Counted from the first letter of the stretch, positions 9,789-42,800 are shown. The stretch is DNA of 51,799 bases from a virus (IMGVR_UViG_3300025141_000053:32001-83799); one strand, 5' to 3'. Notes: generated from the letters alone by a model not told the origin. Numbers and translations are program-made.

Positions 9789-10419
9789 AGAAGAAGTCAC
9801 AAAAATATGGGGCAATATGGTTGGAGCCATATTGAAATATAATCGTACAAGAATTAGTATGCGAGATGAACTTGGCAAGTTGCTAGAAGAAGAAAATGAC
9901 TTATTGAGAAGAAAAGTAATTTTACTTTTTAAAAATCTTAGAGAATATGAAGATATTATTGAAGAAGAATGGTTATCTAATATTATACCAACAGAAATAG
10001 AACTTACTGCAGAATCTCTCACAACATTATTTGATAATGATTTTAAAAACATTGCTCCCATAGTAAAAACTGATGGGCCACTAGGATCATTAGAACCTGA
10101 GTGGACGGAGAAGATTCAAAAAGCAGATTCTCTATTGTCTGATCGTGATGAAGTAGAAAAAGACATGATTTTAAAGAATTCTCTTATGGAGTCTGCAACC
10201 CCAAGAGAATTCATGATAAATGTAATTAGTCAAATGCACAAACAAGATAATCAATATAAGGAAAACTCCGAGAATGGTTTTTATAGGAGATCTGATAAAA
10301 AAATGTCGGGAGTTGATGAACTTGCTGATGCTCTTCCACCCATTCCTGAAGAAAAACCATCTTTGAATCAGCTACAGTTTGATGCTGCTGGAGATAAATT
10401 TAATTTCGAAAATGAGTAA
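9778..10419 (+). CDS. Hypothetical acidic protein ending in the same FNFENE tail as the SSB
   Basis: ORF in operon; C-terminus DKFNFENE. Confidence 0.75.
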   Translation: MMSKEEVTKIWGNMVGAILKYNRTRISMRDELGKLLEEENDLLRRKVILLFKNLREYEDIIEEEWLSNIIPTEIELTAESLTTLFDNDFKNIAPIVKTDGPLGSLEPEWTEKIQKADSLLSDRDEVEKDMILKNSLMESATPREFMINVISQMHKQDNQYKENSENGFYRRSDKKMSGVDELADALPPIPEEKPSLNQLQFDAAGDKFNFENE

Positions 10420-11005
10420 AAAAATAAAGACAAAGAACGTCAAGAATATCTTGGAACCAATTACTCCCAATCATTGTATTTTGGGTTTAGATTGTAGTTC
10501 TTCTGTCTTAGGTTGGGGCCTCATAGATCCTGAAACAAAAAGACTTGTTGCTTATGGATATTATAATTTAGCATCTTCCAAATATGATATTTTAGAAAGA
10601 TTGAATTATCTTTATCAGATTATTAAGTTAACATGTGAAGAATTTTTACCAAAAACAGTTGTTATTGAAGAGATAATTAAGTTTATGAAAGGTCGTTCAA
10701 GTGCTGCGACGATTATTTCCTTGGCTTCTTTTAATAGAACAGCACTTCTTTCGGCATATCATTCTGTTGGTGATGTTCATCGCATGAATGTTAATACTAT
10801 AAGGAAATTAGTAAAAAATGCTTGTAAGTTAAAAAATAAGATTGCCAAAGAAGATATGCCTGATATTATAAAAGAATATCTTTATAATGATTTAAAATAT
10901 TATAAAAAGCGCACAACAGGTTGGACAGATCAGACTTATGATCAGGCAGACGGGATTGCGACGGCATGGGCTTATGTATTGGAGAATTATGCCAGTAATA
11001 AATAA
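10412..11005 (+). CDS. ruvC: RuvC-like Holliday junction resolvase
   Basis: ILGLDCSSSVLGWGLI (catalytic D), VVIEE (E) and DQADGIATAWA (D..D), the RNase H-fold pattern. ATG 10412 overlaps the upstream stop. Confidence 0.8.
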   Translation: MSKKIKTKNVKNILEPITPNHCILGLDCSSSVLGWGLIDPETKRLVAYGYYNLASSKYDILERLNYLYQIIKLTCEEFLPKTVVIEEIIKFMKGRSSAATIISLASFNRTALLSAYHSVGDVHRMNVNTIRKLVKNACKLKNKIAKEDMPDIIKEYLYNDLKYYKKRTTGWTDQTYDQADGIATAWAYVLENYASNK

Positions 11006-18747: not shown

Positions 18748-19392
18748 ATGAGTAATGAAAATAATGCATTAAAAGAGTTAATTGATTATGCTGATTATTT
18801 AGATAAAAGAGGATTTACTTCTATCGCCAATTTATTTGATTTTGCGGTTAATACTATTGCTAATATGAGAAAAAATACTAACATTATTAAGAGTTCTGAT
18901 AGCGCAAAAGTTATGATCGCGAAATGTGCTGATTACATGGATGATATGAATAGCGCAACAAGTGACATATTGGACAAAGTTTTAAAAATTGCTATTGAAG
19001 ATATCCCAGGAAGATATGGCCCAGTAAGTCAATTTGACAGACTAAAACATTCAGAGCAAGTTTATGATACTGAATCACCTGATAAAAAACAAGAAAAGAG
19101 AAAAAGAAGTGACGAGCCTAGTGTTAAGGGGTTCGGAGAGATGGGTTCGCATTTAAATACAAGATATTGTCCAGATCATCATGGTGTTCAAACAACTAGA
19201 ATTGGAGAAAGAGTATATCAGTGTCCACTAGATAAGAAGACTTATAATTATGAGACTGGATATACCAATTATCGAGGAGAAAATATTCCAGGTGGAAGCG
19301 TTGCTCACCAAACTCCTGAATCAAGTGATTATTTTGCAGCACCGTCAAGAATTTTTGACTCAAGAGAAAACTTAATGAATCCTCTTGTATAG
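18748..19392 (+). CDS. Hypothetical protein with two leader-type helical motifs and a C-terminal Zn-like site
   Basis: GGAGG SD before ATG 18748; LIDYADYLDKRGFTSIANLFD; CPDHHG...CPLD. Confidence 0.75.
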   Translation: MSNENNALKELIDYADYLDKRGFTSIANLFDFAVNTIANMRKNTNIIKSSDSAKVMIAKCADYMDDMNSATSDILDKVLKIAIEDIPGRYGPVSQFDRLKHSEQVYDTESPDKKQEKRKRSDEPSVKGFGEMGSHLNTRYCPDHHGVQTTRIGERVYQCPLDKKTYNYETGYTNYRGENIPGGSVAHQTPESSDYFAAPSRIFDSRENLMNPLV

Positions 19393-21866: not shown

Positions 21867-22634
21867 ATGAAGGTATCTCAATTATTGAAAACAGTATTTG
21901 AAATAGCAAAAACTAATAATTTAGCAACTCCATATATGGTAGGAGGAATACCAAGAGATATAGTTATGGGAAATAGTAATGATGTTGAAGATATTGATTT
22001 AACAACTGGCAATGAAGACTCTTTAGAACTAGTCAGATTATGTCATGAACATTGGCCAGAAACATCTTTTAAAGAGTTTAATGATGGTCATGCCTCATTA
22101 AATTTTAAAAATATTAAATTAGACTTCAGTAGTAATAAGATTGCCCCAGATATTGAGGAAAAATTAAAAGAACTTGGGATAAATGATCCAACAGATTTAC
22201 AAAAAGAAATTTATTCAAGAGATTTTACAATTAACACGTTGCTAAAACCCATTGATGACCTAAGTAAAGACATAATAGATGTTACTGGAAAGGGAATAGA
22301 TGATTGTAAGAATAAGATATTACGTGGCCCAATAAGCGGTGAATTTTCTTTTATAAATAGCCCTAATAGGATTGTTAGGGCTATTAGAATTGCTGTAAAA
22401 ATGGATTTGAAATTTAGCAAGGAAGTTGGAGAATCTATTAGAAGGCTTAAGAATCTATTAATGGATGTATCAGATAGATATATAAATAAAGAAATTAATA
22501 AAGCTTTAAGGGAAGATACAGAAAAAACGGTGGCTATTTTAGTAAATTATAAATTGTTGCCTATTCTGCCATTATCAAAAATGCTCACAAGAGAGTTGGC
22601 AAGACAGAGAATGGTACAACATATTTTAGATTAA
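21867..22634 (+). CDS. CCA-adding enzyme / poly(A) polymerase family (class II) nucleotidyltransferase
   Basis: YMVGGIPRDIVMG...DIDL (motif A), SRDFTIN (motif B), DVTGKGIDD (motif C), R..RAIRIA. Short, with no HD domain. Confidence 0.85.
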   Translation: MKVSQLLKTVFEIAKTNNLATPYMVGGIPRDIVMGNSNDVEDIDLTTGNEDSLELVRLCHEHWPETSFKEFNDGHASLNFKNIKLDFSSNKIAPDIEEKLKELGINDPTDLQKEIYSRDFTINTLLKPIDDLSKDIIDVTGKGIDDCKNKILRGPISGEFSFINSPNRIVRAIRIAVKMDLKFSKEVGESIRRLKNLLMDVSDRYINKEINKALREDTEKTVAILVNYKLLPILPLSKMLTRELARQRMVQHILD

Positions 22635-25342: not shown

Positions 25343-26066
25343 AGATTATGAATATATGAAGCCTTCAAAAATGCCTGAATGGATGAAGGATTTCGCTGAG
25401 AAGGAAGCCTTTGACAAAAAAGAGGGCAATTATATTGACCACATTAATGAAATATTACATCCAGAATCTAAGTTAACTACTGTTGACGCGATGGTTAGTG
25501 ATTTGCGTGAGAGAGTCGGCCTTGATATGTTAACTAAGGAAGCGGCTGGAGAAAAAATACTTTCTGAAATGAAGACAGCGAAAAATGTAATAATAAGTCT
25601 TATTGCTATGGCCAACGAATTAGATTCTCGGGGAAGACACAATGAGGCAAAAGCCATTGACAGAAAGATTCAGGCATTAGCAGAGAAATCTAAGAAAAAA
25701 GATGATAAGAGTACAGAAAAATCTGAAAAATCTGAAAAATCTGAAAAATCTGAGGAAGGCGAAGATGGTCTGGCAGGTATTGTTGATGATCCTAAGTTTC
25801 GTGGTATTTTGGAATTTATTGATAAGATTGTTGAGGGAAGAGGTGGAAAAGTAACATCTGTTTCTATACAAGCAATGATAGAGAACGAAAAAGGAATGAT
25901 CGTAGATCCAGAAGTACAAAAATATTTAGAAAATAAGATTAAAGCAGTGAGAGAAAACTCCCCAGACGTTGAAGAACATTCTGGACTATTTGGAGTTGAC
26001 ATACAAGAACAAGATAGAGACGCGAATAATCAAATGTTTCACATGCCAGAATCTAATATGAGTTAA
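25332..26066 (+). CDS. Hypothetical protein with internal leader-type motif and (EKS)4 repeat
   Basis: AAGGAG SD; LIAMANELDSRGRHNEAKAIDRKIQALA; 9-nt repeat at 25716-25751. Confidence 0.75.
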   Translation: MTHRDYEYMKPSKMPEWMKDFAEKEAFDKKEGNYIDHINEILHPESKLTTVDAMVSDLRERVGLDMLTKEAAGEKILSEMKTAKNVIISLIAMANELDSRGRHNEAKAIDRKIQALAEKSKKKDDKSTEKSEKSEKSEKSEEGEDGLAGIVDDPKFRGILEFIDKIVEGRGGKVTSVSIQAMIENEKGMIVDPEVQKYLENKIKAVRENSPDVEEHSGLFGVDIQEQDRDANNQMFHMPESNMS

Positions 26067-26070
26067 AAAA

Positions 26071-27036
26071 ATGATATTAAATTTAATAAAATTAGCAAAT
26101 AGATTAGATAGTTTAGGATACAGAAAAGAATCTGGAATTATAGATGTAATTATTAAAAGAGCATTAGATCCTCAAGTTAAGGCTTTAATAGAATCTGGGC
26201 AAGGATGGACATATGGTTGTCCTAGTTGTAATAGTCCAGTAGACATTGATAATAATGTATTTAGTAAATTTATGCCTGAGCCAATAGAATGTCCGAATTG
26301 TAATAATAGTTTTTCTCCTCATGATGCTGGTGCTAGTCGTAGAATAATGGGTCCGGGGAATATGAAGGGCATGAAAGAAGAGTTTGGTGAGCACGCATTA
26401 AGCGAACAAGAGAGTGGCCTTTGGACTGTTTATACACTTGGAGCTCCATTATTTGTTTTTGAAGGGAAAGCCAATGCTCAACAATTTATGAGATCGCTTA
26501 TGAAAGATCCTGGGCAATTTCTTCCAAAAGCGAAACAGTATGCTTTGGCACATGTTCTTAGAAAAGCGTTGGGCTGGTTCGGCACTGTTTTTCCTCCCGC
26601 ATCAAATCCATGGGGAGAAATAAATTGGGATGACCCAGAAACTTGGGACAAGGCAGAAGAACAGATGTGGAGAGATGCTAGGGTTGGTGCCTCGCATGAA
26701 AGAATTCCCCATAGTGATGTTGAGTTTTCTAAAAGACAGATTGACCCTGATGCGGTATTTGAAGATGCTATTGAAAAATCAACCAAGGTAGTGCCATGCG
26801 ATGTTCCTCTAGATAGTAGTGAGTATGTACATCATGGAGAATCTCCAGACAAGGGCCATAAGAAAAAACAAGAACAGTTAGTTGAAAAATTACCAAAAGA
26901 CGAAGATGGACTTTTGGAATCTTATGAAGTTCTTGATGAACATGGCGACAGAGTTAGGAGACAAGTTTTGCTGAGAGAAAAAATTAGGAATGAGGACAAG
27001 GATCCAGATAAACTTGCCGATGACATGAGGTGGTAA
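26071..27036 (+). CDS. Leader-bearing Zn-ribbon protein (paralog of 31483-32391)
   Basis: N-terminal MILNLIKLANRLDSLGYRKESGIIDVIIKRA; CPSC..CPNC..FSPHD; C-terminal DPDKLADDMRW. Confidence 0.8.
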   Translation: MILNLIKLANRLDSLGYRKESGIIDVIIKRALDPQVKALIESGQGWTYGCPSCNSPVDIDNNVFSKFMPEPIECPNCNNSFSPHDAGASRRIMGPGNMKGMKEEFGEHALSEQESGLWTVYTLGAPLFVFEGKANAQQFMRSLMKDPGQFLPKAKQYALAHVLRKALGWFGTVFPPASNPWGEINWDDPETWDKAEEQMWRDARVGASHERIPHSDVEFSKRQIDPDAVFEDAIEKSTKVVPCDVPLDSSEYVHHGESPDKGHKKKQEQLVEKLPKDEDGLLESYEVLDEHGDRVRRQVLLREKIRNEDKDPDKLADDMRW

Positions 27037-28878
27037 ATGTCAACAATCAATTCAGGAAAAGAAACATTTGATTGGTTAAAAAAAGAAGTTCTCAAGATAG
27101 ATCCAGTATCTTTTGCAGAAAATTATTTAACAATTGAAAACCGTAAATTTAAGATAACCAACAATGGTTGGAAATTTATGGCAGATCTATATAGACACAT
27201 TATATATGAAGCAATGTCTGATGACGGCAAACCTATTGTTATTGTCAAGGGTCGTCAGGTTGCTGCCACAACAATGGCAACCAATCTAGGTTGCTATTTA
27301 ATGGGTTCAGGAAATTATGGTATTAATGACAGACCACCTATTTCATTACTTCATGCATTTCCGCAACTTGAACTCATGTATGACTATGCAAAAGATAAAT
27401 TAGAAAAAACAATTCGTAATTCTACACCCCTCAAACATCCTACGAAGGCGGATAAAATTTTAGGATATATGGAGTTTATGAAAGATTCTGCGCGTGATGC
27501 GACAGATAGTTTAACATTCAAGCAATTCAAAGACGGAAATTCTTGGTGGTGTAACTCTATTGGCAATGAGGGCACAAGAGTTTTGGGTCGTCGTTTTGAT
27601 GGCATCTTTTTTGATGAGGTTCAGAAGATGACGGAAAAGGCTGTTGGTATTGCCAAGAAATGTCTAACATGGTCTCAATATGGTCCTGTTGGCGAAGGCT
27701 TTCAGGTTTATTTTGGAACACCAAGACATAAGAACTCATACTTTCATAAAATCTGGGAGAAATCTGATAAGAGATATTTTTTCTTAGGGTGTTGTGGATG
27801 TGGAGAATATTTTAAACTATATAACTCTAAAGAAACTGATGCTTGGGAAGAAATATGGCTTTACGAAATGGTCGTAAAATGTACTCATTGTGGAGAAGAA
27901 CAAAATAAACTAGAAGCTGTTGACAGGGGTAAGTGGATACCAACCGTGGAAGATCCGGAAAGTTGTAAATATACTGGTTTTCATTTTAATCAATTATATA
28001 TACCAATTTTTGCTAAAGAAACTGTCTTAAAAGAAAAACCGGAGAATTCGGCAGAAAACTCTGAAGTTACTTATATGAACGAAGTCCTTGGTGAATTCTA
28101 TTCTGGAGAAGGTCTTCCAATTACTTTTGACGAAATATATACTACTTGTAGAGATCCCGACAGACTTTGGACTCATCCGAAGCACATTATAACAAAACGT
28201 AAGTCTGTATTAGACAAAACACTATTTCTTGGATTTGACTGGGGCGGGAAACCAGACATTGAGGGCTCTAAAAGGGGCCAATCTTTTTCTGTTCTAACAG
28301 TGCTTGGAGTAGAACATGATGGATTATATCCTATTGAATATGCGACAAAACTTAAGAAACTTAAAATAGATGATAAAATTAAATTTGTTGAAGAGATGTT
28401 TAGGCTATATCGTCCAAGATTGGCAATGGGTGATATTGGTTATGCTGAAGATTTATCTATGGAACTAAAGTCTATTTTTGGTGATAAATATCAAACAGTA
28501 CGAAACTCTGCTTCTGTTGCTCATGGTGTTAAGTATCATTCAGATGAATTAGAAGTTGTTATTGATAAAGACAAGTGGTTGGGTGAAATGTTTGATAACT
28601 TTAGACGAGGGAAATTTCGTATTCCTTGGGCGAGTTATGAACAATTGGCTTGGTTTGTAGAACATTGTTGTTCTATGGAATCTAAAGATGTTGTGCGTGG
28701 TGGCGTGCCATATCAAATGTTTATAAAGGGAAAGGAACCAAATGATGGTTTGATGTCATTATTATGTGCTTATGTTGCTTATAAGTTTAACAAGACACAT
28801 GCTTTTAAGTTGAACCCAAATTCAATGAAGTCAAGTAAGTTAAGGCCAATTTTAGCCTATATGCCAAAACTTAAATAA
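27037..28878 (+). CDS. Terminase large subunit
   Basis: Variant Walker A IVKGRQVAATT, Walker B IFFDEVQ, coupling motif FGTP, lambda-gpA-like Zn insert (CCGC..CTHC), NEVLGEFY, nuclease LGFDWG, GDIGY, NDGLMS. Confidence 0.85.
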   Translation: MSTINSGKETFDWLKKEVLKIDPVSFAENYLTIENRKFKITNNGWKFMADLYRHIIYEAMSDDGKPIVIVKGRQVAATTMATNLGCYLMGSGNYGINDRPPISLLHAFPQLELMYDYAKDKLEKTIRNSTPLKHPTKADKILGYMEFMKDSARDATDSLTFKQFKDGNSWWCNSIGNEGTRVLGRRFDGIFFDEVQKMTEKAVGIAKKCLTWSQYGPVGEGFQVYFGTPRHKNSYFHKIWEKSDKRYFFLGCCGCGEYFKLYNSKETDAWEEIWLYEMVVKCTHCGEEQNKLEAVDRGKWIPTVEDPESCKYTGFHFNQLYIPIFAKETVLKEKPENSAENSEVTYMNEVLGEFYSGEGLPITFDEIYTTCRDPDRLWTHPKHIITKRKSVLDKTLFLGFDWGGKPDIEGSKRGQSFSVLTVLGVEHDGLYPIEYATKLKKLKIDDKIKFVEEMFRLYRPRLAMGDIGYAEDLSMELKSIFGDKYQTVRNSASVAHGVKYHSDELEVVIDKDKWLGEMFDNFRRGKFRIPWASYEQLAWFVEHCCSMESKDVVRGGVPYQMFIKGKEPNDGLMSLLCAYVAYKFNKTHAFKLNPNSMKSSKLRPILAYMPKLK

Positions 28879-28889
28879 GGGGAAATTAT

Positions 28890-29222
28890 ATGATATTAAA
28901 TTTAATAAAATTAGCAAAAGATTTAGATATTTTGGGGTATACCAAAGAATCTATTATTATTGATGGTCTTATAAAAGAAGCCCAAAATAAAATTATACTA
29001 ATAAAATTGTATGGTAGAATAATCATGAAAAAATATATTATTACAATTAGTACTGTGGATGATACTACTAAGGTGGGAAATGCTAAGAGTTTTAAGGGAA
29101 GTCAAGAACAAGTTGGCTTAGCTAAGCAGTATTTACAACAACTTATACAGAAATATCCGCAGGTAAAAATAGATCATGATTTGAGTTCAACATTAACACC
29201 TCAAATGTTTGGGATAAAGTAA
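28890..29222 (+). CDS. Small leader-bearing protein
   Basis: N-terminal MILNLIKLAKDLDILGYTKESIIIDGLIKEA; lies between terminase and portal. Confidence 0.7.
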   Translation: MILNLIKLAKDLDILGYTKESIIIDGLIKEAQNKIILIKLYGRIIMKKYIITISTVDDTTKVGNAKSFKGSQEQVGLAKQYLQQLIQKYPQVKIDHDLSSTLTPQMFGIK

Positions 29223-29231
29223 GGAGAAATT

Positions 29232-31223
29232 ATGAGAAGAGGATCAAGAGAAGTAAATAAAGGCGCAAATGATGTGGGCGAAATAAGAATTAGTCCAGAT
29301 GCATCTAGACAACTTTCTGATGTCAGGAGAAATATGATCCATAGAGATGTAGAAAGTGGTATAGTTGTTGAGTCAGGAAAAAACTATAATGGAAGTATGT
29401 TGAAAAAAAATATTGTTGCTGGTTCACAGAGCAATTCTAATTTGCCAGACATTGATCGCGGAGAATGGGATGAGCAAAGTGGACAAGTTGTTTCTAGAGG
29501 TTCTGGAAGACCATCTAATTATTTAAAAAAAACGGCACAAGCAGTTATTGCTAACAGCTCTTCTTTTAAAAAGCAAGCATCTATTTCTTCTACATCCAAT
29601 TCTTCTGGTTATTCTGGTGGGTCACATACTGATAGACTTGCACCAGAAGTATATTCCCCATTATTTACGATGGCGAATCTTAATTTGCCAAGAGATAGAA
29701 TTACTATTAATTCTTGGATTCGCAATTTCTATGACTTACATCCTATTGTAAGAAATTGTATTACATTACATGCGACATATCCAATTTCAAAATTAAATAT
29801 TAGATGTCACGACCAAAAGGTTGAGCAATTTTTTTCAGACATGGTTGAAGAAATGGATTTGCTTGGAACATTGGGCGAACTATCATTAGAATTCTGGAAG
29901 TTAGGTGAGGTTGTTCCTTATGCAGTTTTAGATGAAAATGAAAAAAAATGGAAAAGAATTAATATTTTAAATCCTGATTTTGTTCATGTTAAAAAAGCAG
30001 CAATTGGCGGCTATCCTATTATTTCTCTAAGACCTGACGAAGCACTAAAAAGATTAGTTATGAGCAGTCATCCTGCAGATCAACACATTAGATCTCAGAT
30101 TCCTGAAGAGATCATTCATCATGTTAGAAAAGGACAAAATATTCCTTTAGATAATTTCAATGCTTCTCATTTAAAAATGTTATCCAGCCCTTATGATATT
30201 CGTGGAACTTCAATTGTTGTATCATGTTTTAAGGATTTAATGCTTTTTGATAAGTTGAGGGAGGCAAAATTTGCTCAGGCAGATGGTCTTATAAACCCAA
30301 TTACATTAGTCAAGGTCGGTGGAAATGCTGAAGGTGAAGCGAGGCTGACTTCTGAAGATTTAGAAGAATGGCGTCAAATTATGGAAGAAGCACAGTATGA
30401 TAAAGATTTTAAAATTATTACTCATGCTGGTGTGGCCATTGAGCGCATTGGTGCTAATGGACAAATTATTGATGTTGCTGGAGACATTGAATTAATTATT
30501 AAGAATCTTTATACTGGATTAATGGTTCCTCAGGCTGTTGTTGATACAGAGAGTGCTGTTTATTCATCAGCATCTATTGGTCTTGAAGTATTGAGACAGA
30601 GATATTTCAATTTCCGTAATTTAATTGCAAAATGGTTAGTTAATAAAATTTTTGCTCCGATAAGTAAGATGAGAGGATTTTTCGAATATAAAGACGGGGA
30701 AAAGAAATTAATAATTCCTGAAGTTGAGTGGAATCACATGAATCTCTATGATCTTAGTGATTATGTACAAACAACTACAGGTCTTCTTTCTACACAACAA
30801 TGTTCATTACAGACTATATATAGAAGTATTGGATTAAATTATGAGGAAGAGAAGAGAAAGCAGAGAGAAGAAATGATCGATCTTGCAAAAAAACAAAGAG
30901 AAGAGCAGGCTTTGGCAAAATACTCACTTGAAGAGTTAAGATCTATGGATTCAAGTAAAGAGATTCAAGAAGCTTCTGAGGGCGAAAGACCTGGCGCAGC
31001 TGGAGCTGGAGCACCAGGGGCTGGTGGAGACATGGGCATGGGTGGAGACATGGGCGGCATGGGTGGAGACATGGGCGGCATGGGCGGAGACATGGGCGGC
31101 ATGGGCGGAGACATGGGAGGTGGAATGGGTGGAGAATTAGCACCACCTCCTTCTGGTGAGTTAGGCGGCGGTGGTGGAGGAATGAGTCCAGAGATGGGTC
31201 CAGGCGCAGCGCCCCCAATGTAG
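29232..31223 (+). CDS. Portal protein
   Basis: Downstream of TerL; FYDLHPIVRNCI, ILNPDFVHV, HLKMLSSPYDIRGTSIV, PITLVKVG, GLMVPQA, YSSASIGL, IPEVEW; Gly/Met/Pro-rich tail. Confidence 0.8.
   Translation: MRRGSREVNKGANDVGEIRISPDASRQLSDVRRNMIHRDVESGIVVESGKNYNGSMLKKNIVAGSQSNSNLPDIDRGEWDEQSGQVVSRGSGRPSNYLKKTAQAVIANSSSFKKQASISSTSNSSGYSGGSHTDRLAPEVYSPLFTMANLNLPRDRITINSWIRNFYDLHPIVRNCITLHATYPISKLNIRCHDQKVEQFFSDMVEEMDLLGTLGELSLEFWKLGEVVPYAVLDENEKKWKRINILNPDFVHVKKAAIGGYPIISLRPDEALKRLVMSSHPADQHIRSQIPEEIIHHVRKGQNIPLDNFNASHLKMLSSPYDIRGTSIVVSCFKDLMLFDKLREAKFAQADGLINPITLVKVGGNAEGEARLTSEDLEEWRQIMEEAQYDKDFKIITHAGVAIERIGANGQIIDVAGDIELIIKNLYTGLMVPQAVVDTESAVYSSASIGLEVLRQRYFNFRNLIAKWLVNKIFAPISKMRGFFEYKDGEKKLIIPEVEWNHMNLYDLSDYVQTTTGLLSTQQCSLQTIYRSIGLNYEEEKRKQREEMIDLAKKQREEQALAKYSLEELRSMDSSKEIQEASEGERPGAAGAGAPGAGGDMGMGGDMGGMGGDMGGMGGDMGGMGGDMGGGMGGELAPPPSGELGGGGGGMSPEMGPGAAPPM
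31023..31127 (+). repeat. ~21-nt tandem repeat encoding GGDMGGM in the portal tail
   Basis: Five GC-rich units (three exact 7-aa copies flanked by 6-aa and 8-aa variants). Confidence 0.95.
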
Positions 31224-31246
31224 AAATAATTTATTAAGGACAAATT

Positions 31247-31483
31247 GTGGAAGAAAAAACAGTACAAGAAATACAGAAAAAATACAAACAGCAACTGAGG
31301 CAATTGGAAGAAATAGGAAAAGTTGGAGATCCACATTTAATGAAAAAAGTAGATTCTCAGTTAAATCAAGAATATAAACAAATTCTTTCAGAATTTCATT
31401 TGATTTCTGCTAAATTATCCTTATTAAAGAAATTATGTGGTGAATCACAGAGATTGACAAAAAAAGCGATGAGGAGAAAATAA
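31247..31483 (+). CDS. Hypothetical coiled-coil protein (78 aa)
   Basis: GTG start with AAGGA SD; TAATG coupling downstream. Confidence 0.6.
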   Translation: MEEKTVQEIQKKYKQQLRQLEEIGKVGDPHLMKKVDSQLNQEYKQILSEFHLISAKLSLLKKLCGESQRLTKKAMRRK

Positions 31484-32391
31484 TGATAGTACAATTAACT
31501 AAACTAGCAAATAAATTAGATATTTTTGGCTATATAAAAGAATCTAAATTTATAGATAAGTTAATTAGAGAAGCTATTGATATGTCACTTGTTGAAAAGT
31601 TTAAAGAGGGATGGTCTCCTGCTTGTCCTAATCCAAGTTGTAATAAGCCTGTAGAATTAGATCCTTCAGTTTTTACTAAAATGTTTGTCCCAGATGAGAT
31701 TTGTCCACATTGTGGAAGAAATTTTTCTCCACATGATGTTGGAGCAGTTAGAAAAACTTATGATGATACTGGAATAAATGATAAAACTCCTTTTAGTAGT
31801 GGACTAACTAATGAAGAAAGGGGTCTTTGGGGATTTTACAGTAACGGATTTTCTTATTTTGTGTTTCGGGGTAAAAGTAATGCTGAACAATTTTTAAAAA
31901 GATGGAGAAGTGGTGGATATGATCATTACCTAGATCTTATAATTGAAGATACTTATAAAGATTTAGATTTTGATATTTCAAGAATTGCTGAATATACAAT
32001 TATGAGAAATATAGAACTTATGACGGGGCCTCCTTTGGGTGAATTGTCAGACGATGATAAAGAATATATTAAACGGCGTGTTGGTAATCCCGGTAAAATA
32101 CAGAGCGAGATTCAAGAAAAAACATCTAAGATTATACCATTACCAGATATTGATTTAGGTAGCTCGGCAATTGTTCCTCCTGGAGAAATGCCACAACTGG
32201 AACATTATAAAGCTTTACATGATTCTGAAGAAATATTGGATATTGAGGAAAAGGATGAAGTTTGGAAAGAAGAATTGGATGGTGTTTATGACACTTATGT
32301 AAAGCCACTAAGAAAAGAACTTACAAAAAGGCGTGAGGCGAGAGATAAGGGGATAGACCCTGATACATTGGCAGACGATAAAATTTGGTAG
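31483..32391 (+). CDS. Leader-bearing Zn-ribbon protein (paralog of 26071-27036)
   Basis: MIVQLTKLANKLDIFGYIKESKFIDKLIREA; CPNPSC..CPHC..FSPHD; C-terminal DPDTLADDKIW. Confidence 0.8.
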   Translation: MIVQLTKLANKLDIFGYIKESKFIDKLIREAIDMSLVEKFKEGWSPACPNPSCNKPVELDPSVFTKMFVPDEICPHCGRNFSPHDVGAVRKTYDDTGINDKTPFSSGLTNEERGLWGFYSNGFSYFVFRGKSNAEQFLKRWRSGGYDHYLDLIIEDTYKDLDFDISRIAEYTIMRNIELMTGPPLGELSDDDKEYIKRRVGNPGKIQSEIQEKTSKIIPLPDIDLGSSAIVPPGEMPQLEHYKALHDSEEILDIEEKDEVWKEELDGVYDTYVKPLRKELTKRREARDKGIDPDTLADDKIW

Positions 32392-32400
32392 GAGAAAACA

Positions 32401-33846
32401 ATGCTTACAATAAAACAGGCAAAACAATTTTCAGAAGTACTAGTAAAAAATGAATTATATAAAGATGCGAGTCATATAGATAAATATATTCTTTTGGCCA
32501 GTAACTCACCAATTGAAAAACATGCTGGCTTGTGGGATTGGGTAGGCGGGAAATTATCTGGTTGGTCCAAACGAATATTTTTTAAAAATTTCCGTCAAGC
32601 TTATTCTTTGGCAACTGAAATTCAGAAAGAATTGGATGATCACATGGGAAGAGTGGATGAGCAATTTGGCCAAACAAAAATGTATCTTGCCCGGCATGAC
32701 CTTATTAATTGGCAAAGGGCAATAGCTGAATTGGGCATCAATATCACTCCATCTGAGAGACTCGCAAATTTACAAAATAGATATAATGATTCCTTAAAAG
32801 AAATGAATAAGGGTGTTGGTCTCTTGAGTGATGAACAAAAAGAAGAATTAAAAAAAGAACAAAAAAAGCAGAAGAAACCTGCCCCATCAACTGAAACTCC
32901 AGGAGATACTACTCCCGTTGCTGAAGATGATTCTGCCGAAAAGTTAGATGAAATTCCAAGAATAAAAAATCCTGAAGAAATGACTGCAGATCAGTTAAAA
33001 CGTTTAAAAATGTTATTAGGTGCCCCAAGTGAGGATTATGCACGCTGGAATAGATCAATAATCTTCTATAATAAGAGGTATGCAACATCTGATTATTCAA
33101 ATGTTGCGAGAATAGCCATACCAAAAAAAGTTTTTGATTACCATGTTGATAACTCTCATTTTAATTCAATAACAAGAGATGATGGTAAAAAATATTTTAT
33201 GGTCAATCAGGCACCAAGTGCTAACTTGTCCAACGAATTAAAAAACACAGTTGCTGCCGAAAATATAATTAATGCTGCTTGGGTACAAGATGGAGAATTG
33301 ACGGATAAAGATGGAAATAGTTGGATTGAATTCGCCCAAGTAGATCGTTCTCAAGTTGACATGTTTCATGAAGATCTTGTTACACCAAAAACACCAGAGG
33401 AGGCTGTGAGGATCGAAAATACGGCAGATTACGAATTTTTTGAGGGTGATAGCGGTTCTATTTATTTACCGAGAAAGCAGTTTGAAGCAGGACTTTCTGA
33501 GGGGTTTGTCGAACTTACACCAGATGGAGATATTGGTCCTGTTAAGTTTGTTAAATTAGTTATTGACGCGGCTCATCCAGAGTGGAAAAATATTTTGCGA
33601 TGGAGGGGCAGAGACGGGAAAATTCTAAGATGTGAGTACGTATCAGATGATTGGATTAAAATTAATAAAATAACTGTCACCACAATGAAAAAAGAACTTG
33701 GGATAAGAACTCCATCTGACATGACTCCAGAAGTAGAGTCAGAGGTTGAATTAGAGGATATTGATGTTCCAGAATCGGAAGATGGGGAAGAATCCAAAAC
33801 CGCAAAAAGGCTTGATAAAATAATTGCATTAGCTATGATGATGTAG
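32401..33846 (+). CDS. Hypothetical putative virion protein with degenerate leader and C-terminal linker motif
   Basis: AGGAG SD; ...YKDASHIDKYILLA near the N-terminus; ends KTAKRLDKIIALAMMM. Confidence 0.75.
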   Translation: MLTIKQAKQFSEVLVKNELYKDASHIDKYILLASNSPIEKHAGLWDWVGGKLSGWSKRIFFKNFRQAYSLATEIQKELDDHMGRVDEQFGQTKMYLARHDLINWQRAIAELGINITPSERLANLQNRYNDSLKEMNKGVGLLSDEQKEELKKEQKKQKKPAPSTETPGDTTPVAEDDSAEKLDEIPRIKNPEEMTADQLKRLKMLLGAPSEDYARWNRSIIFYNKRYATSDYSNVARIAIPKKVFDYHVDNSHFNSITRDDGKKYFMVNQAPSANLSNELKNTVAAENIINAAWVQDGELTDKDGNSWIEFAQVDRSQVDMFHEDLVTPKTPEEAVRIENTADYEFFEGDSGSIYLPRKQFEAGLSEGFVELTPDGDIGPVKFVKLVIDAAHPEWKNILRWRGRDGKILRCEYVSDDWIKINKITVTTMKKELGIRTPSDMTPEVESEVELEDIDVPESEDGEESKTAKRLDKIIALAMMM

Positions 33847-33854
33847 GTGATAAG

Positions 33855-36800
33855 ATGATATCTAAAGTTACGGCGACAGATCTTGGCCAAATTGTAAATC
33901 TTCTGCAAAAACAATTGATGCCAGAAGAAACATCTCCTAAAACCAGTCCTCAAGAAACTGTTTCAAAAGAAACTATATTGAGACCGCTTCCTCTTGTTGA
34001 TACAAAATTAGCATATGATATTATTATTGGTTTAGAAACTGGTGGCAAATATGCTGTTGGAGATCTTGAGACTGGCTATGGATTGGTGGGAAACCAACTA
34101 TCAGCTTTTTCTAGACACCTATCAAAAGATCCACTATCTGAGAAAGTAACTGGAATAAGTTCTTCTGATTATAAAACAATTGGAAGTGCCCATGGTAATG
34201 CTTGTAGGGCACTGAGAAAAATAGATTATTGGAAAGAGGTTCCAATTGATCAAGATGCTGTCGAATCTTATTTTAAAAATAATCCTCGAAAATATAGACG
34301 GAAGGTTTTAAAATATACTTTACCAAATGGCGAAGCTATTATTGCCAAAAAGAAAGATGGTGGCTGGAAAGGATATGGTGTTGATTATAGTAAATTAAGT
34401 GGCTACATGAAAATAACTCCTGAGTCAAAGTCTAAAATCAATCGCATTGTTAGTAGATATATTACTGGCAATGTTAACTTAAGTGCTATAGCCAAATTAA
34501 AAGCTTCCCAAGATCATCCAGAACTTTATAAAAAATTTGATGATACATTTACTGATGCAAAAAAAGTAAGAAAAAATAAATCATTAATGGCATTATGTGA
34601 GAGAATGGCGCAAAGAGATTTCTCTGGCCGCATAAATTCTGTAGTTAAAATGGTTCAAAAATATGGATATGATGTTTCCAACTCACAAGCCTATAATATT
34701 TATCAACTAATAGCAATAGCAAATGCTAGTGGCCTTGGCCGACTTAGTAGATTCTTAAAAAACAAACAAACTTTTTCTGAAGGCCACTTATATTATTTAA
34801 AAAGGGCAAATCCTGCCATTCAAAAGAAAACTGGTATTTCAACACAAATGCCTCCGAATGGTGGGTTGGCTGGTTTTAAACAAAAGACAGCAATGATATC
34901 AAAGAGAGCAATTATGAAATCAATTCCTTTCCCACAAGATTATGTAGAGTCAATTAAGAATGGCCAGCGAACATTTACCATAAGACTTGAAGATTATGGT
35001 GTAGAGCCTGGTGATACTGTACAAGCTATTACAGATGCTGGTGCTCACTTCTGTGATCTTTCTATAGAAGAAGTAAAAAAAATGACTCCATATAAAATAG
35101 GGAAAGACATAAGTGAACCATTAGGACTTGATTTAGAGGAGAAGTTTAAATTTCAGCCCGAAGTAGAAAATTTCTTTGTTATTAAATTTTACAATCCTAA
35201 TATAAAATATGCTTCTGATAATAAACATATTGTGGTGGATGATGGGGCAGAATTTTTAATTAATGCGTTACATATATTAGATTCTTCTTTTTCAAATTGG
35301 GAAAAGTATATGGATTTTGAATATGACATTATAGAAAATTTTTCTTTATATCGTGTAAAATTTATAATTATATTAGATGATTTGCCAAATAATTTTATTA
35401 ATCTGAGTCCCTTATTTAGACAAGATATTTTCTCAAGAACAACTCATGAAGATCATTACATACAAGTATCGTCTTATATAAGGCAAGGAGAAACGGAAAA
35501 ATTTTCTGAAATTGTAGATATTTTATATAATATAATAGAAAAATCTATATCAAATCAAAAAACAATTATACAAAAATTTATTAAAACAATAGCATCTATT
35601 ATTTCTGATAATGATTATCATAAAGATGATGTTTACTCTGTAGTAGACCCGTTTTCAGTTTTTAATAGATCTAAAATAATTGTTCCTAAATCTAGTTTTG
35701 TTTTTAAATTGAGCGAATTTAATCTACTTCCTCAAGAAAGAGAAGTGTTTAATTTACATTTGGGCGAAGAAAAATCTAAAGAGACAGATTTTAAAATTTA
35801 TTCTAATAATGGCAAATCAATATTTATTATCTCATTAGAATATCCTGATGTAAAATATATTGATGAAAAAAAACAAAAAGAAAATGTTTTAGGGCAAAAA
35901 AAGAAAAATAAATTAATTGGTTTAAATACTGAAATGATGGATCATATCATAAAAGTTATGGGTAATAAGATTAAATCATTTAATAATGATGGTGTTAAAC
36001 CTGGTTTTGTTACAAAAGTATCAGAGTTATATCATGATCCATTTGGCGCTTCTGGAAAATTTTTTAACCAAGATATAGAAATTTTATTTCGCCTAGAAGA
36101 TAATCAAAAAGCAGCATATGAGGGGCTTTATAATAGCAAAAAGAAAACAATTTCTATTTGGATCCCAGAAGAAAACATAGATTATGAGAAAATAGAATCC
36201 CTGTTAGAACATGAATTAGCTCATAGCGGAGAAGTTGTTTCTGGAGACCCGAGTGCAAGTAAATATATTGGCCCAGATAGAAATTTTATGGCATATTTAC
36301 ATAATAAAAATGAAATAAATGCCAGGTGGGGACAAATACTATTATCTTTAAGAAGAGATGGGTTATCAAAACACCATTTAGATTTATTTATGCGTGAAAG
36401 AGAAAGAATGACCGAGAAAGAAGAAGAAATATTTATGGAACAAGTTCGTGGCAGGGTAGAAAAAAACGCAAGAACAATTTTAGAAGCTATCAATGAGGGT
36501 CATAATTCTGTAGATATGATTTATAAAGTATTAAATGGTAGATTTACAAAAAGAGCAATTGAGACATACATAGATCATCTTAGGGGAGATGGTTTTTTAA
36601 GTAATGCCTCTCGTTTAGATAAAATCAAAAAACTTGCCACACAAACATATAGTGATAGAAATGATAATACATATAATGTTGATGAACTTATTAAAATAAC
36701 AAAAGACAATAAAATTACTGATGAGCCAATTAAAAAGTTCAAAAAAAATCTTAAGAAAAAAATGTGGGAAGATTCTGATGATAATGAAATTTCCTTACAA

Positions 36801-39800
36801 GATGTATTGGATAATAAATCTAAATATAGAAAAGAATCTTCTAGGATAAAAGAAGTTGATCTCAAATATCCGATATTGGTATATAAAGATACGGTTGTTG
36901 ATGGAAATCATAGATTATCTAAAGCATTTGACGAAGAAAAAGAAACTATTAAGGTTAGATATGTTACCAATAAACAAATGGAAAAATGTTTAGAAAAGGA
37001 GATAGATTTCCCTAAGTCAGAACACAAAGATATTAAAAAACAATTAAAAGAGCGGGGACATATATACACAACTCGTGTTGATAAAGATTATGGAAAATAT
37101 AAAGAAGGTGACATACTAACATCTCCATTTGGAACATTAAGAGTTAAAGATGTTGATAAATATAATAAGTTAGAAGATCATCCACATCTAGATGAATTGA
37201 CCGATAAAAATAAAGAGGATATTGGAAAACACAAATACGAATATATAAAACTTATAAGAAAAGAATCAGAAAGGATGAGGTTGATTTCGAAGGTCGCTGA
37301 AGATATAAGTAAAAAAGATGATATCGAGAAAATAATTGATGATTTAAATCCTGATATTGTTATTGATGCAGATATTGTGAATGATATAATTTTAGAATTA
37401 TCATTTGAGAGCGATTATAAAGATTTTATAGACTTATCTGATGTTGTTACTGGTTTAAACAATAACGAAGCATCAGTAATGGTAAAAGAGCATAAAGCAA
37501 TAGTTAGTCTTATTGGCAGAAATGGGTTTTCTCCAGATTTAATAAGAAAGGCTGCGGCAAACATAAACAGTGCTTTTAAAAAATCAAAATTAAACCAAGA
37601 AGCTATAATGGTTAAGATTTGGGCCAAAGTGTTTGGGTCTGTATCATTTGGCTATGGTGTAAAAGATGAACACTATTCTTTTAAGCTTTCTAGTGGTCCA
37701 TTTAGAAGATCACTAAAAATATTATTTCCTGAAAATCCCACAACGCTGTCTTTGTCTGAATTAAATGTTGATGACTCAAAAAAAAGAGAATTTGGGGAAC
37801 ACATATCGAAGATTTTGGGATATGGAATAGTATTCAAGAATTTTAGGATATCAATTGAGGGTGATTACGTAATTCTACTTTGTGTCCCTGATATGAAAAG
37901 CTCTAACTATATTAGTTTAAGGGAACAAAGAAAAAATATTTTAGAGCAAAAAGAAAAAAACCTTAGTGATATTGGGATGAATGAAGATAAGTTTAATGAG
38001 TTATTAGAAAGGACAAAGGCTTATTATAATAGTTTTGAATATGATGAATATACTGCAGAGCCGATAGATGAAGATCATCCTTCAACGCCATTGGAAAAAA
38101 TTTGGAGTGATCCCTATGGCGCAGCCGGGAAATTTTTTAACAAAAACACTAAAATAGTTTTGGCATTTCACGAAAGAACTAAAAATAATGGAAAATATTC
38201 TGGAAAATATTTGCCTGATGAAAATTTAATTGTTGCTTATATTTCAGAAAACGACCATGTAGATTTGGCTATGATTGAATCTATTATAGAGCATGAATTA
38301 GTTCATAGTGGGCAAGGAGATTTTAGTGGATATATTAGTTCTGAAGAAAATAGTTTAATATATCTTTTAAATAAAAGTGAAATAGATGCCAGATGGGGAG
38401 AAATATTATTTAGTTTAAGAAAACATGGTCCTAGCCCTATTTATTATGGGTTGGTTAGTGATGAACGCAAAAGAATGACCAATCAAGAAAAAGATGTGTT
38501 TGATGAGTGTATTAAAAAAATAAGATCAAAATATCAAAATATTATTCTGGAAACAATAAATGAAGGGCATAACTCTATTGATATGGCATATGAGGCACTT
38601 GAAAGAAAATTCTCTAAGAAGGCAATAATGAAATATTTTGATGAGTTAGAATTTAATCATTTGATAGATACTGCCTCTCGCCTAGACCATATTAAAAAAC
38701 TTGCTTTTGGTGGAAAAGACCAGAAAATATTATATCACGTTGGTCCAAGGCCAGCCGAACCTAAGCCTTATAAACATAATATAGAAAAAGGATGGACTAG
38801 ATATTTTAAGGAAGATGGTGAACATAAAGTCATAAATTATGAACGTGCAGTATTTTTAACAAATAACTGGAAAAAGGTTTGGCAAAATCACGGTATTCAC
38901 GGAAATATTTACATATATAAAATTCCCATGGCCATGATAAAAGAGTCTGGTGGCATACAGAAATATGATTGGGCGACCGAAATTATATTTGATGAGAATT
39001 TATGGAATAAATATAAGAAAGATGTTGTTTTTGTTGGATCTATAGATGAACAAAAAGCAGAAGAAATAATGAAAGACTATTTTGAAACACGGCCAGGGAT
39101 TGGCAAAAAGCAATTAGAGAGAGAGATGGAAGATGTAGTTGATAGGCTTTTATCTGGCGAGGCAAATATAGAATCATATTCTTACTTTTCTAATGATCGT
39201 CTAAATACAATAAAAGATATGTTAAATAAAAAAAATGCTGGCGAGGAAATAGTCTCTCTTATTGATCGTATATTAAGAGTGAATGCCATTTACCAAAATA
39301 TCGATGACAGGGAAGCATCTAGGATTGATAGAATAAAAAAAATAGCCAATTTTCCAAATGAATTATTGGAGAAATTAGATGATATTAATTATGGATTGGT
39401 AACAACAGATGACGAGGAACTATCTCAAGAAAAAATGGATTCATTAGACGATGAGAATGTTGATTGGTGGAAAAATGGAGATAATATTAAGTTATTGACC
39501 ACAGAAGAGACATTAGATAGAAATATTGGAAGTTGTTATGAGCAAAGTCTTCTAGAATATAAACTATTGGATGAGGCTGGATATGACCCAATAATGGTAT
39601 TTGTTAATCCAGAAGATGGTGAGGGCAATGGGCACAGTGCTATCTTTTATAGTGAAGGAGATGAATGGTATTGGATAGAACATTCTTGGGGTGATCAACG
39701 GGGAATCCATGGACCTTATGATAATATAAATGACGGAATAGATATTATGATAGAAAAAATGTCGATGGGATGGAAAAATGTTACTAAATATTATTTAAAT

Positions 39801-42800
39801 AAAGATATGGATCCTTCTCTAATACTAGACAAAGAAGGATTGACTTATAAAGATTTTAAAACTCAAGGTTTGAAGGGAGCATCAATAGAGAATGTAGAAG
39901 AATATTGTAACGATGCTAAAGTAGGCTCAAGGCTTGACTTAATAAAGAAAGTTGCCAGAAGAATTAGTATACTATATTTACAAAAAAAATACAAACATGT
40001 TTATAAGCATATTGCTGATGAGTTAATAAGTGTGGGGAGATCTTCTAATAATTCTAAATTTTTTGACAATGATGATGATGCATTAGCTGCTTTGAGCCGG
40101 CCACCTGAAATTATACGAAGATATTTAAATGATAAACTTCCAAAAGATGTTATTGTAGAAGTTTATGATGATGGTATGGAGGATACGTTTTATTTGGGAC
40201 CGAGAGGCGGATATTTAGAAAAACCAATTAGTGGAAGATGGATTCATGTAAGTTGTCTTCCAAGGGGAAAAAATTTAGACAATTATCTTCGTAAATTTTT
40301 AAATATAGACAATCATGTTTGTTTTTCTTCGGTCGGAAATCAATCTGGAGATGAACTTTATGTAGAGGGAAGAACTGACCAATTTTTTGCAATCATTATG
40401 GATGGGGAGGCAGACGGGGCTTTTGGCCATGATGTTTATTCTGATATTGATGAGTGGACAAATAGAAGATGTATTTCTGGTTTGACTAAAAATAAGCGAA
40501 AGCCTCCCGAGACTATTTTTGAGGCTTGGGTTATCCCGAAACAATCAAAATTTGTTTGTATTGTTTCAAATATAGATTCTATTATAAAAGAAGCCGAAGA
40601 ACTTGGGATTAATATAGTTAAAAGTAGTCCAATTGGGTTTGGAAGGAGTGATAACGAAATAGATAAAACTGATTTGACTTATGAGGATAGTGTTGAACTA
40701 GAAAATGAACTAGAAGAAACAGATAAGTGGATGGATAAGGCTCAAGAATATGATTCTGATTATTATAGAAAACCAAAGAAAAATAAGTCTATAGTCGAGG
40801 AAGACGAGGAAGATTCATGGGAAGATTACGTCGAAATATCTGGATCAAGATTTGACCAGATTAACAAGTTAGCAGTTTCCCCAGAAAAACCTTCTGGTAT
40901 TTTAACGCCGCCAGAAGATAAAGTAAAAATGGTATCTGATTATATTCGTAAACATTTCTATCCAGCATTATTTTCACATTGGGGAAATTGGAAAGAAAAA
41001 TCAAATTTTATATTGAAAGAACTTAATGATGCCAAAAAACAATTGGAGCAAGACAAAAATGCTTTGCCATCAATCTGGATAAAAAGAGAAAAAACCAATT
41101 TGACCATTGATAAAAAAGAAACTAGTTGGTCGCTTTTTGGGAATGGAAAATTTCTAGATATTAAATTTTTATCAGCAGGTAATATAGATTTTAAAGAAAA
41201 AATTATAGATATAATTGACAAAGAAGAGAAGTCTTTGCGAGAGGATTTTGAGTGGGCTGGAAAAGTTCCACAAGAAAAAATTGATATTTTAAAAGAATAT
41301 GCCAATGGCCAAACTATTACTTTGCCAAATACAAAAGATTTTAATTTTGAAATAGACAATTATCCTATAATGATAAGAGTTGTTTTTGATCCTACAGCAA
41401 GAACACATTATCATTCAAGAGATTTTGTTGGATATATAATACTTGGATCACATTCATTTTCGCCATATCAAACAAATCAACAATATTTCTTTGAAGCACT
41501 TCGTGCTATCCCACATGAATTTACACATGTAATGCAAGATATTCTTGCCAAAAAACTAGGTAAAGAGAGACATGAGGTTGGTTTGTCTTCTTCTAGAATA
41601 GGTGATAAACCAGAGCATCATTTGAAACCACATGAATTTAAAACAAACTTAGTAACTACTATAGAAGATATTAAACAAAATTTATTACAATATCCTTCCG
41701 ATGAGAGAGGGGAAATCCTCAAAATGAGATTGGCAGTTATTCCTTCAGAAAATAATTATGGACCTTGGAATTTAACACATGATAGGACAATGGTTTTATT
41801 AAAAAAAGATGCTCCTATAAAATGGAAAAAAGCGGTCAAGGAAGTATATCAGGCAGTTGAAAATTTATTACAAGACAAAGTTGCCCAGAGGCTTAATCAG
41901 ATAAGAAAACTAGCACAAAGAAGCAAGTACGAAATACTTATTGGATATCTTATAAATATATTAAATGATATGAATGTATCGAAGTCAGAAGTTATTATTG
42001 GAGGAAGTGGAATTCTTGGCGCTTTAGGATTAAAATCTGTTGGCGATTTAGATATTACCATTCCGGATAAAAAAGCATGGAGACGGATATCACAACATCC
42101 TAATGGTATTGTGGATGAAATTCGCCCAGGAAATCCTAGAGTTAGATTTGATTTTCCAGAAGGTGAGTTAGAAATATTTACTGGGCCATGGAAAGTTGAC
42201 GAAAGAGATTTTGCTGAAAATATGCTATTAACAGATGTAGAGGGAATTAGTCATTGGAGTCCAGAGCATACGCTAGAATGGAAACAGATGATGAACAGAC
42301 CAAAAGACCAGAGCGATATTGAATTACTTGAAGGTTTAAATAAAAAATCTTCAAGACTTGATAAATTAGCAAATGAAATTACATATCTTAATCAAAAAGA
42401 ACAAGAAGAAAATGTTTTATATGATAAAAAAATGAAGAGAAATGTTGGATTAAATGAAAAATATATTTCTTCTCTTATTAATGGAACAAAATCATTTTAC
42501 AAAAATATAAATGAAGAGTACAAAAAATTGGGGATAGATGAATATAATCCTAAATCAACATATGATATTTCAAGTAGTCATCCATATCTTTATGTTGGAG
42601 ATATATATTTTGACCCATATGGAACATCAACAAAATTTTCAGACCCTACCCTTAAATTATATTTTATAAAGTTAGATCCTATGGCTGTAAGTAAAATCTG
42701 GGGCAATATGCCAAGAGTTGGTTATGGTGGAATATGTGGAGGAGACAAAATATTAGTTATGATTCCTGATTTCGACAATGTTGATTTGTCGAAAATAGAA

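Follow-up and report, generated by a model that had tools for sequence, protein, structure and literature searches.

We analysed a 51,799-nucleotide stretch of viral DNA (hereafter the window), which comprises bases 32001-83799 of an 83.8-kb virus contig in IMG/VR (IMGVR_UViG_3300025141_000053; CheckV completeness 21%). Three of its genes, which lie around the large terminase and portal genes and start at 26071, 28890 and 31483 (orf26071, orf28890 and orf31483), open with a shared N-terminal leader. Our results show that this leader is one copy of an undescribed, self-contained protein module of about 31 residues that is restricted to viruses.

In line with the initial annotation of the window, the three open reading frames (ORFs) begin with closely similar sequences of 31 residues, which are identical at 23/31, 18/31 and 20/31 positions in pairwise comparison, and the first 29 nucleotides of orf26071 and orf28890 are the same. 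The likeness is far beyond chance. The leaders are found in the contig by the family profile with E-values of 2e-16 to 2e-13, and a nine-sequence profile run against 1.84 billion representative proteins matched 708 protein clusters at E<=1e-3. The body of orf28890, a protein of 110 residues encoded between terminase and portal with a metagenomic homologue of 109 residues (P0020), is indeed unrelated to the other two, as its likeness to them is confined to residues 1-33. The other two are paralogues with 47% identity over residues 1-142. One of them, orf26071, encodes a zinc-ribbon protein of 321 residues and abuts the terminase start with its 3' end, while orf31483 encodes a protein of 302 residues downstream of the portal. 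A degenerate copy that had been read at the start of the gene at 32401 (orf32401) was not detected by the module profile (E>2).

A deep profile recovered six significant module copies in this contig (Table 1). Besides the three leaders, there is an internal copy in orf25332 (244 residues), which is followed by a low-complexity stretch rich in Lys, Glu and Ser and is kept in the 397-412-residue proteins of relatives. A divergent copy occurs in orf18733 (219 residues), a protein of no known family for which the PHROG search gave no match. The sixth copy stands at the N-terminus of a PolyA_pol/HD enzyme of the CCA-adding type (723 residues), encoded within the replication region upstream of the window. 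Candidate copies at 20157 and 25112 were not confirmed. The module sits on at least 5 unrelated bodies within this contig.

Copy positions and copy numbers were counted in the best 151 of the 708 carriers, which together hold 203 copies. Of these copies, 132 have their start within residues 1-6, another 56 are internal and a further 15 lie near the C-terminus, and 44 carriers hold two or three copies, often one per end with low-complexity spacers between them. The idea of a signal found only at the N-terminus is thus not supported, since 71 of the 203 copies are internal or C-terminal. An ungapped alignment of 143 copies gave the consensus M-I-[KN]-[EK]-L-I-K-L-A-N-[HK]-L-D-x-x-G-[LFY]-x-K-E-A-[DN]-[YF]-[LIV]-D-x-[IL]-I-K-x-A, in which L5, L12, D13, G16, E20 and D25 are near-invariant and conservation ends at about position 31. 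The description of the leader as a portable tag was borne out by the carriers: when the modules were masked, 132 carriers fell into 105 BLAST groups, 92 of which are singletons. Almost nothing in the carrier proteins was recognised by Pfam and PHROGs.

The helical hairpin proposed for the leader agrees with the AlphaFold2 model built on the 143-sequence alignment, a confident alpha-hairpin with helices at residues 2-14 and 18-32 and a Gly turn at 15-17 (mean predicted local distance difference test score, pLDDT, 93.7). Helix 1 bears a wide hydrophobic face. A shallower model of the whole 26071 family (mean pLDDT 67) contains the same hairpin, with helix 2 extended to residue 41, and has no fold match in the PDB. 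Searches with the hairpin model returned only generic hairpins from the PDB and BFVD, and only unnamed viral clusters from the ESM Atlas. Rop chains were among the nearest PDB shapes, with a template-modelling (TM) score of about 0.75 that is not significant (E>2). Co-folding of two module copies with the 143-row alignment gave a score of 0.02, which, obtained without controls, is evidence neither way on self-association.

The restriction to viruses is apparent from a stringent back-translated DNA pattern, which had 12 matches in IMG/VR but none in 596 Gb of cellular sequence (185,579 bacterial and archaeal species genomes). The module is therefore not a known cellular domain. The initial annotation had allowed for the opposite outcome, a match to a known unrelated domain of cellular proteins, and Pfam and the PDB sequences likewise yielded nothing of this kind. 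No relevant publication came up when the motif strings were searched for in the literature.

Syntenic contigs (L006-L012) also carry the leader on three genes around terminase and portal, namely on a protein of 328 residues before the terminase and on proteins of 271/278 and 331 residues after the portal, and have an internal copy in the protein upstream. Residue 31 of the leader is Ala or Ser in these contigs. Synonymous codon changes are common between leaders. Hence, it is the peptide and not the DNA that is under purifying selection. In L006, the leaders of the 271-residue and 331-residue proteins agree in 29/31 residues despite 7 synonymous codon changes, and are closer to each other than either is to the leader of its orthologue in the window. 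This co-variation of leaders within one genome suggests one shared partner encoded by the same phage genome. An alternative explanation is recent duplication within the genome.

Larger relatives in IMG/VR extend the picture beyond the contig. Three of them, G001 (316 kb, 94% complete), G003 and G004, resemble this contig in the terminase (44% identity) and in the portal (58%). At E<=1, the module profile has 17 matches in G001, 22 in a further relative (G002), 11 in G003 and 8 in G004. A scan of G001 gave 14 significant copies, two of which are located 1-8 kb upstream of the terminase. Arrays can be dense, with 13 copies in 9 kb of G002 and 12 copies in one 13-kb IMG/VR locus. Altogether, 8-22 copies were counted per near-complete relative, and most of them belong to small-gene arrays at a distance from the head genes. 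Among the array neighbours and head-region ORFs of G001, Pfam recognised only DNA ligase and DUF192, and tblastn searches of phages with these neighbours gave no useful information.

The tagged genes of the window are found just upstream of a multidomain ORF of 4150 residues. It contains three HExxH zincin-like modules, two transglutaminase-like modules, a ParB-like DGNHR motif and an ASCH domain, with Pfam scores that are all below the curated cut-offs. The ORF is internally duplicated, and a linker closes each zincin module. The next ORF has a LigD phosphoesterase domain. This architecture resembles that of the polyvalent proteins of phages and conjugative elements, which were predicted to be packaged and to be self-processed by their zincin domains (Iyer, Burroughs, Anand, de Souza, Aravind 2017; PMC5512222). 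It differs by the 11-residue linker, which occurs ten times here and is specific to this sublineage. The word 'linker' is absent from the text of that paper, so that a repeated motif of this kind is apparently not among its subjects.

The initial annotation had matched the end of the leader to this linker, and this claim stood only in part. A gapless alignment exists, with 6/12 identical residues, but the leaders of this window rank 77th, 480th and beyond 533rd on the linker matrix (ranks are among 28,798 windows), and when the leader and linker profiles were compared with hhalign the probability was 1.7%. The linker copies score 29-36 bits each on this matrix, and all else at most 18 bits. 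At the level of the family, module positions 21-31 are the best of 26 registers on the linker matrix, and in this register 36% of the 143 copies exceed the 99.9th percentile of the background. In the reverse test, a matrix of helix 2 (positions 21-31) placed 8 of the 12 linker-like sites in the top 27 windows. On the helix-2 profile, the linkers come within the top 0.1-1%, and helix 2 is the closest match in the contig to the repeated polyprotein linker, with A-x-x-[LIF]-D-x-I-x-K-x-A as the common pattern. Unrelated amphipathic helices score in the same range. Because both sets are families, these tests amount to roughly one comparison, for which we estimate an effective p of about 0.02-0.1. 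A link between helix 2 and the linker is therefore only suggestive, at the level of the family, and the likeness is weak for the leaders of this window. No linker motifs were found in the tag-rich G001, and close relatives have only 1-2 in 2,800 polyprotein residues, so that module and linker are not obligatorily coupled. A search of phage G with the linker profile found nothing, although this search was probably too coarse for 13 residues.

Two further linker-like sites are located in orf32401. The first, ASHIDKYILLA, is similar to helix 2 or to the linker without reaching significance as a module copy; the N-terminus of orf32401 is conserved in relatives. The second, AKRLDKIIALA, is linker-like and is conserved in relatives (KRVDKIIALAMMT).

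Table 1. Module copies, linker sites and neighbouring genes (window coordinates unless stated otherwise)
Feature	Position	Strand	Score or remark
N-terminal module copy on 723-residue PolyA_pol/HD (CCA-adding-type) enzyme	contig 10408-10503, upstream of window		E 4e-9
Divergent module copy, residues 13-42 of orf18733	18769-18858	+	E 9.9e-5
Internal module copy in orf25332	25590-25691	+	E 1.8e-7
Module copy 1, N-terminal 31 residues of orf26071	26071-26163	+	family profile E 2.4e-16
orf26071	26071-27036	+	
Large terminase	27037-28878	+	PF05876 4.8e-15; phrog_675 4e-55
Module copy 2, N-terminal 31 residues of orf28890	28890-28982	+	E 1.7e-13
orf28890	28890-29222	+	
Portal protein	29232-31223	+	phrog_16240 2.3e-55; Bacillus phage G portal 34.6% identical
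Module copy 3, N-terminal 31 residues of orf31483	31483-31575	+	E 4.8e-14
orf31483	31483-32391	+	
ASHIDKYILLA, residues 23-33 of orf32401	32467-32499	+	rank 12 on linker matrix, rank 32 on helix-2 matrix
AKRLDKIIALA, three residues before C-terminus of orf32401	33802-33834	+	18 bits, rank 11 on linker matrix; rank 4 on helix-2 matrix
4150-residue multidomain ORF	33855-46307	+	motifs read in sequence
Linker span in 4150-residue ORF	36606-45065	+	nine full copies [AG][SQ]R[LIF][DN]xIxK[LIV]A and one short form
Full linker starts	36606, 38673, 39315, 39924, 40842, 41883, 43197, 44925, 45033	+	short form 42348
Linker copy ASRFDQIYKLA in next giant ORF (46304 to window end)	51623-51655	+	LigD phosphoesterase domain just upstream

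What we tentatively infer, with less than even confidence, is that the module serves for docking and, as a tag, directs diverse cargo to a single partner encoded by the phage, with the assembling head as the most likely destination. Its conserved face (L5, L8/A9, L12, D13, G16, K19, E20, D25, I27/I28 and K29) would bind one putative partner encoded by the phage, and by sharing this partner diverse cargo proteins would be brought to one place. Carriers with several copies could then act as cross-linkers or scaffolds. In the assembling head, such docking might load internal or ejected proteins, as the capsid-targeting sequence of phage T4 does. The internal, C-terminal and repeated copies point to a binding module rather than to a mere cleavable signal. 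Three observations suggest the head as destination. Tagged genes surround terminase and portal in this lineage; shortly downstream of them follows the gene of a giant multidomain protein, a type for which packaging has been predicted; and in other places small diverse genes in arrays start with the tag, in a layout reminiscent of the internal-protein loci of T4. The restriction to viruses and the co-variation within genomes also count for this interpretation.

Several observations weigh against it, or against the capsid-targeting signal as first proposed. Enrichment in the structural region was not apparent, as only 2 of the 14 significant copies of G001 are near the terminase. Nine of the 14 stand at the start of small genes that follow one another at 144-162 kb, beside a DNA ligase gene and 95-110 kb from the terminase. 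The capsid protein, protease ORF, portal and terminase carry no such copy. Other carriers adjoin helicase, ligase or metabolic genes, with MoxR/CobT, SOD and exonuclease among the neighbours. Placement in the head region is therefore a feature of this sublineage and not of the family. The module has no match in Pfam, PHROGs, PDB sequences or 50,697 phage records, and hence in no cultured phage among them. Internal, C-terminal and repeated copies are ill-suited to a simple cleavable N-terminal signal. Moreover, the leader was thought to be removed after its terminal Ala, yet residue 31 is Ala in only 70 of the 143 copies (49%) and Ser in 13%, with Ser in close relatives (LIKHS, LIKES), and no invariant cleavage motif follows the end of the module in these copies.

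Cleavage deserves separate consideration, because the module might instead be a propeptide. Helix 2 (A-x-x-L-D-x-I-x-K-x-A) would then be what a phage protease recognises, and the linkers would be cut by this enzyme as well. The enzyme would be either a prohead protease like gp19 of phage G or the zincin domains of the polyprotein, and the tag would be lost after residue 31. This would explain why helix 2 and the linkers find each other in both matrix tests, why linkers stand at module borders in a zincin-containing type of protein for which autoprocessing has been proposed (PMC5512222), and why orf32401 has conserved linker-like motifs at both ends. It is difficult to reconcile with the variable residue 31, with the absence or scarcity of linkers in tagged relatives, with the poor linker scores and negative hhalign result of the leaders in this window, and with the unrelated amphipathic helices that score in the same range. 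Cutting at the internal and C-terminal copies would also split the carriers. In the 26071 family, helix 2 is predicted to continue to residue 41, past the proposed cleavage point, and no convincing cleavage motif is common to the leader end and the capsid N-terminus of G001, G003 and phage G. Our results thus do not support removal of the tag by a protease after Ala31, and we regard a propeptide as quite improbable. The original combination of capsid targeting, cleavage after Ala and equivalence to the linker stands as a hypothesis on which the evidence is mixed. In the widest reading, giant marine phages related to phage G would use the module as a universal alpha-hairpin address tag of 31 residues that loads 10-20 different proteins per genome, enzymes among them, into the capsid for co-injection, with multi-tag proteins as an internal scaffold and the helix-2-like linkers as docking or processing sites. 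This wider version seems doubtful to us.

Two other explanations were considered. The hairpins might, without involvement of the capsid, join each other or a phage-encoded hub inside the infected cell, and so build a viral factory or a condensate-like network, in which single-tag proteins are clients and multi-tag proteins with low-complexity spacers are cross-linkers. The 44 carriers with two or three copies, often one per end, fit such an intracellular assembly tag, as do carriers that are encoded beside replication and repair genes and include the tRNA CCA-adding-type enzyme. The wide hydrophobic face of helix 1 suggests that more than one other helix packs against it, and the nearest PDB shapes, such as Rop, pair into four-helix bundles, although these matches are not significant. 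We nevertheless consider this explanation unlikely, as there is no positive evidence for self-association and as it leaves unexplained why tagged genes keep their place around terminase and portal in this lineage. Alternatively, the hairpin might bind a host protein, and the arrays would be take-over or anti-defence batteries with a single host hub as their target. Small genes that diversify fast behind a constant N-terminus and lie in arrays would be expected of such effectors, as would the restriction to viruses. However, lineage-specific co-variation of the leaders is more in keeping with a phage partner that evolves fast than with a host hub that is conserved, and neither the placement near terminase and portal nor the multi-copy carriers would be accounted for. 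A host-directed tag is the least probable of the explanations considered here. The carrier bodies are mostly acidic (median isoelectric point 5.0) and have a membrane-like segment in 8 of 132 cases, but neither property separates the explanations.

With regard to the genomic context, the source genome is probably roughly 400 kb in size and would belong to a giant marine phage related to Bacillus phage G. Judged by the portal, phage G is the nearest cultured phage. All genes of the window are on the plus strand, and its GC content is about 33%. The capsid and protease genes of this contig are situated past the contig end. In G001 and G003, the capsid protein is 55% identical to gp27 of phage G, and in G001, G003 and G004 a gp19-like protease is part of a long ORF of up to about 1,100 residues. 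The gp19-like prohead protease domain thus lies in an ORF of ~1,100 residues in G001 (C1:39998-43321) and G003 (C1:~147425), and in a 300-residue protein in phage G. We also considered orf31483 as a relative of the phage G protease gp19, but the two are not related. A search for related loci with orf26071 as query found nothing.

Several features of the carriers and their neighbours are worth recording. The 26071/31483 family has a conserved acidic-aromatic tail, (V/I)DPDxLADDx(R/I)W (window 26980-27033 and 32335-32388), which is partly invariant among six homologues and which, by its sequence, looks like a docking peptide. The C-terminal tail of the portal (window 30950-31220) is rich in Gly, Met and Asp with GGDMGGM repeats, and is lacking in the portals of relatives. 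There are two tRNA-nucleotidyltransferase/PolyA_pol-like genes, the tagged one with its HD domain (contig G000:C1:10402-12573; 723 residues) and an untagged one in the window (21867-22634; 255 residues). In carriers P0008, P0014 and P0015, the hairpin module is followed by poly-Lys and then by an EF-hand-like loop at the end (e.g. LDENKNGKIDSEDF), and a few members of the carriers have Pfam EF-hand matches. Another N-terminal motif recurs in G001 (L071, L076), with sequences such as M-K-K-I-A-S-K-R-N-Y-N-L-I-K-N-A / MIKKVSYSS / MRKISYRSS, in the ORFs at 53385-53690, 156262-156630, 157162-157824, 161296-161709, 39998-43321 and 45864-46757. It is present on the protease-containing ORF of 1108 residues, and once directly after the hairpin module. 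In phage G (NC_023719.1, 4754-18253), several head-region proteins open with a basic motif that resembles the linker SRLDKIKKLA: gp5 (LSRIKKI), gp9 (LTRLKKIKQL), gp10 (MKKSRLKKV), gp17 (LKRLIKK), gp20 (MSKKISRLKKTA) and gp13 (MKRLISKTA). Going by these sequences, the motif may be an N-terminal signal in this cultured relative.

A conserved, folded and virus-only tag that is present on more than 100 unrelated bodies, and that reaches 8-22 copies per genome in 200-400-kb phages, has not been described in the libraries searched. If it is a loading or assembly tag, sequence alone would mark the proteins that uncultured giant phages deliver or co-assemble. It would then offer a handle on 'dark' genes that otherwise cannot be annotated, and a compact tag for the packaging of foreign proteins. 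If the address-tag version is true, these phages would have a modular cargo-loading system far larger than that of T4. Even if the destination is not the capsid, a shared docking module would imply a hub in the infection biology of megaphages that has so far gone unrecognised.

A system close in concept is the capsid-targeting sequence that T4 has on the internal proteins IPI-III and on Alt (Mullaney & Black 1996, cited in PMC10052503). The module shares with it the N-terminal tagging of unrelated and mostly small proteins, some of them encoded in variable arrays at a distance from the head genes, and the loading of cargo for injection that we propose here. The T4 signal has about 10-19 residues, is strictly N-terminal, ends in the gp21 motif L/I-x-E and is removed. 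In contrast, the module is a folded hairpin of 31 residues without a fixed cleavage motif, and it also occurs internally, C-terminally and in multiple copies. There is no sequence likeness to the T4 signal, and the leader proteins have no Pfam or PHROG family and no match in the 50,697 phage records. Docking and dimerisation hairpins of the Rop/Rom and RIIa type are alpha-hairpins of similar size, but the matches in shape are not significant (E>2) and a relation in sequence was not found.

In its structure, the module recalls the scaffolding protein of phage P22, which has a C-terminal coat-binding helix-loop-helix that docks inside the HK97-fold shell. Both are two-helix hairpins of about 30-40 residues with conserved charged residues, and the AlphaFold2 model of the module conforms to this hairpin fold. 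The P22 element differs in that it is C-terminal, belongs to a single protein and is not portable, and the profile search of the PDB gave no match in sequence. Finally, the cargo-loading peptides of encapsulins and the encapsulation peptides of microcompartments are short terminal helical tags that bring unrelated cargo to one shell protein. Like the module, they can be placed at either end, are sometimes repeated and are borne by unrelated cargo proteins. Those systems are cellular, however, whereas the module described here is virus-only, longer and folded into a hairpin.

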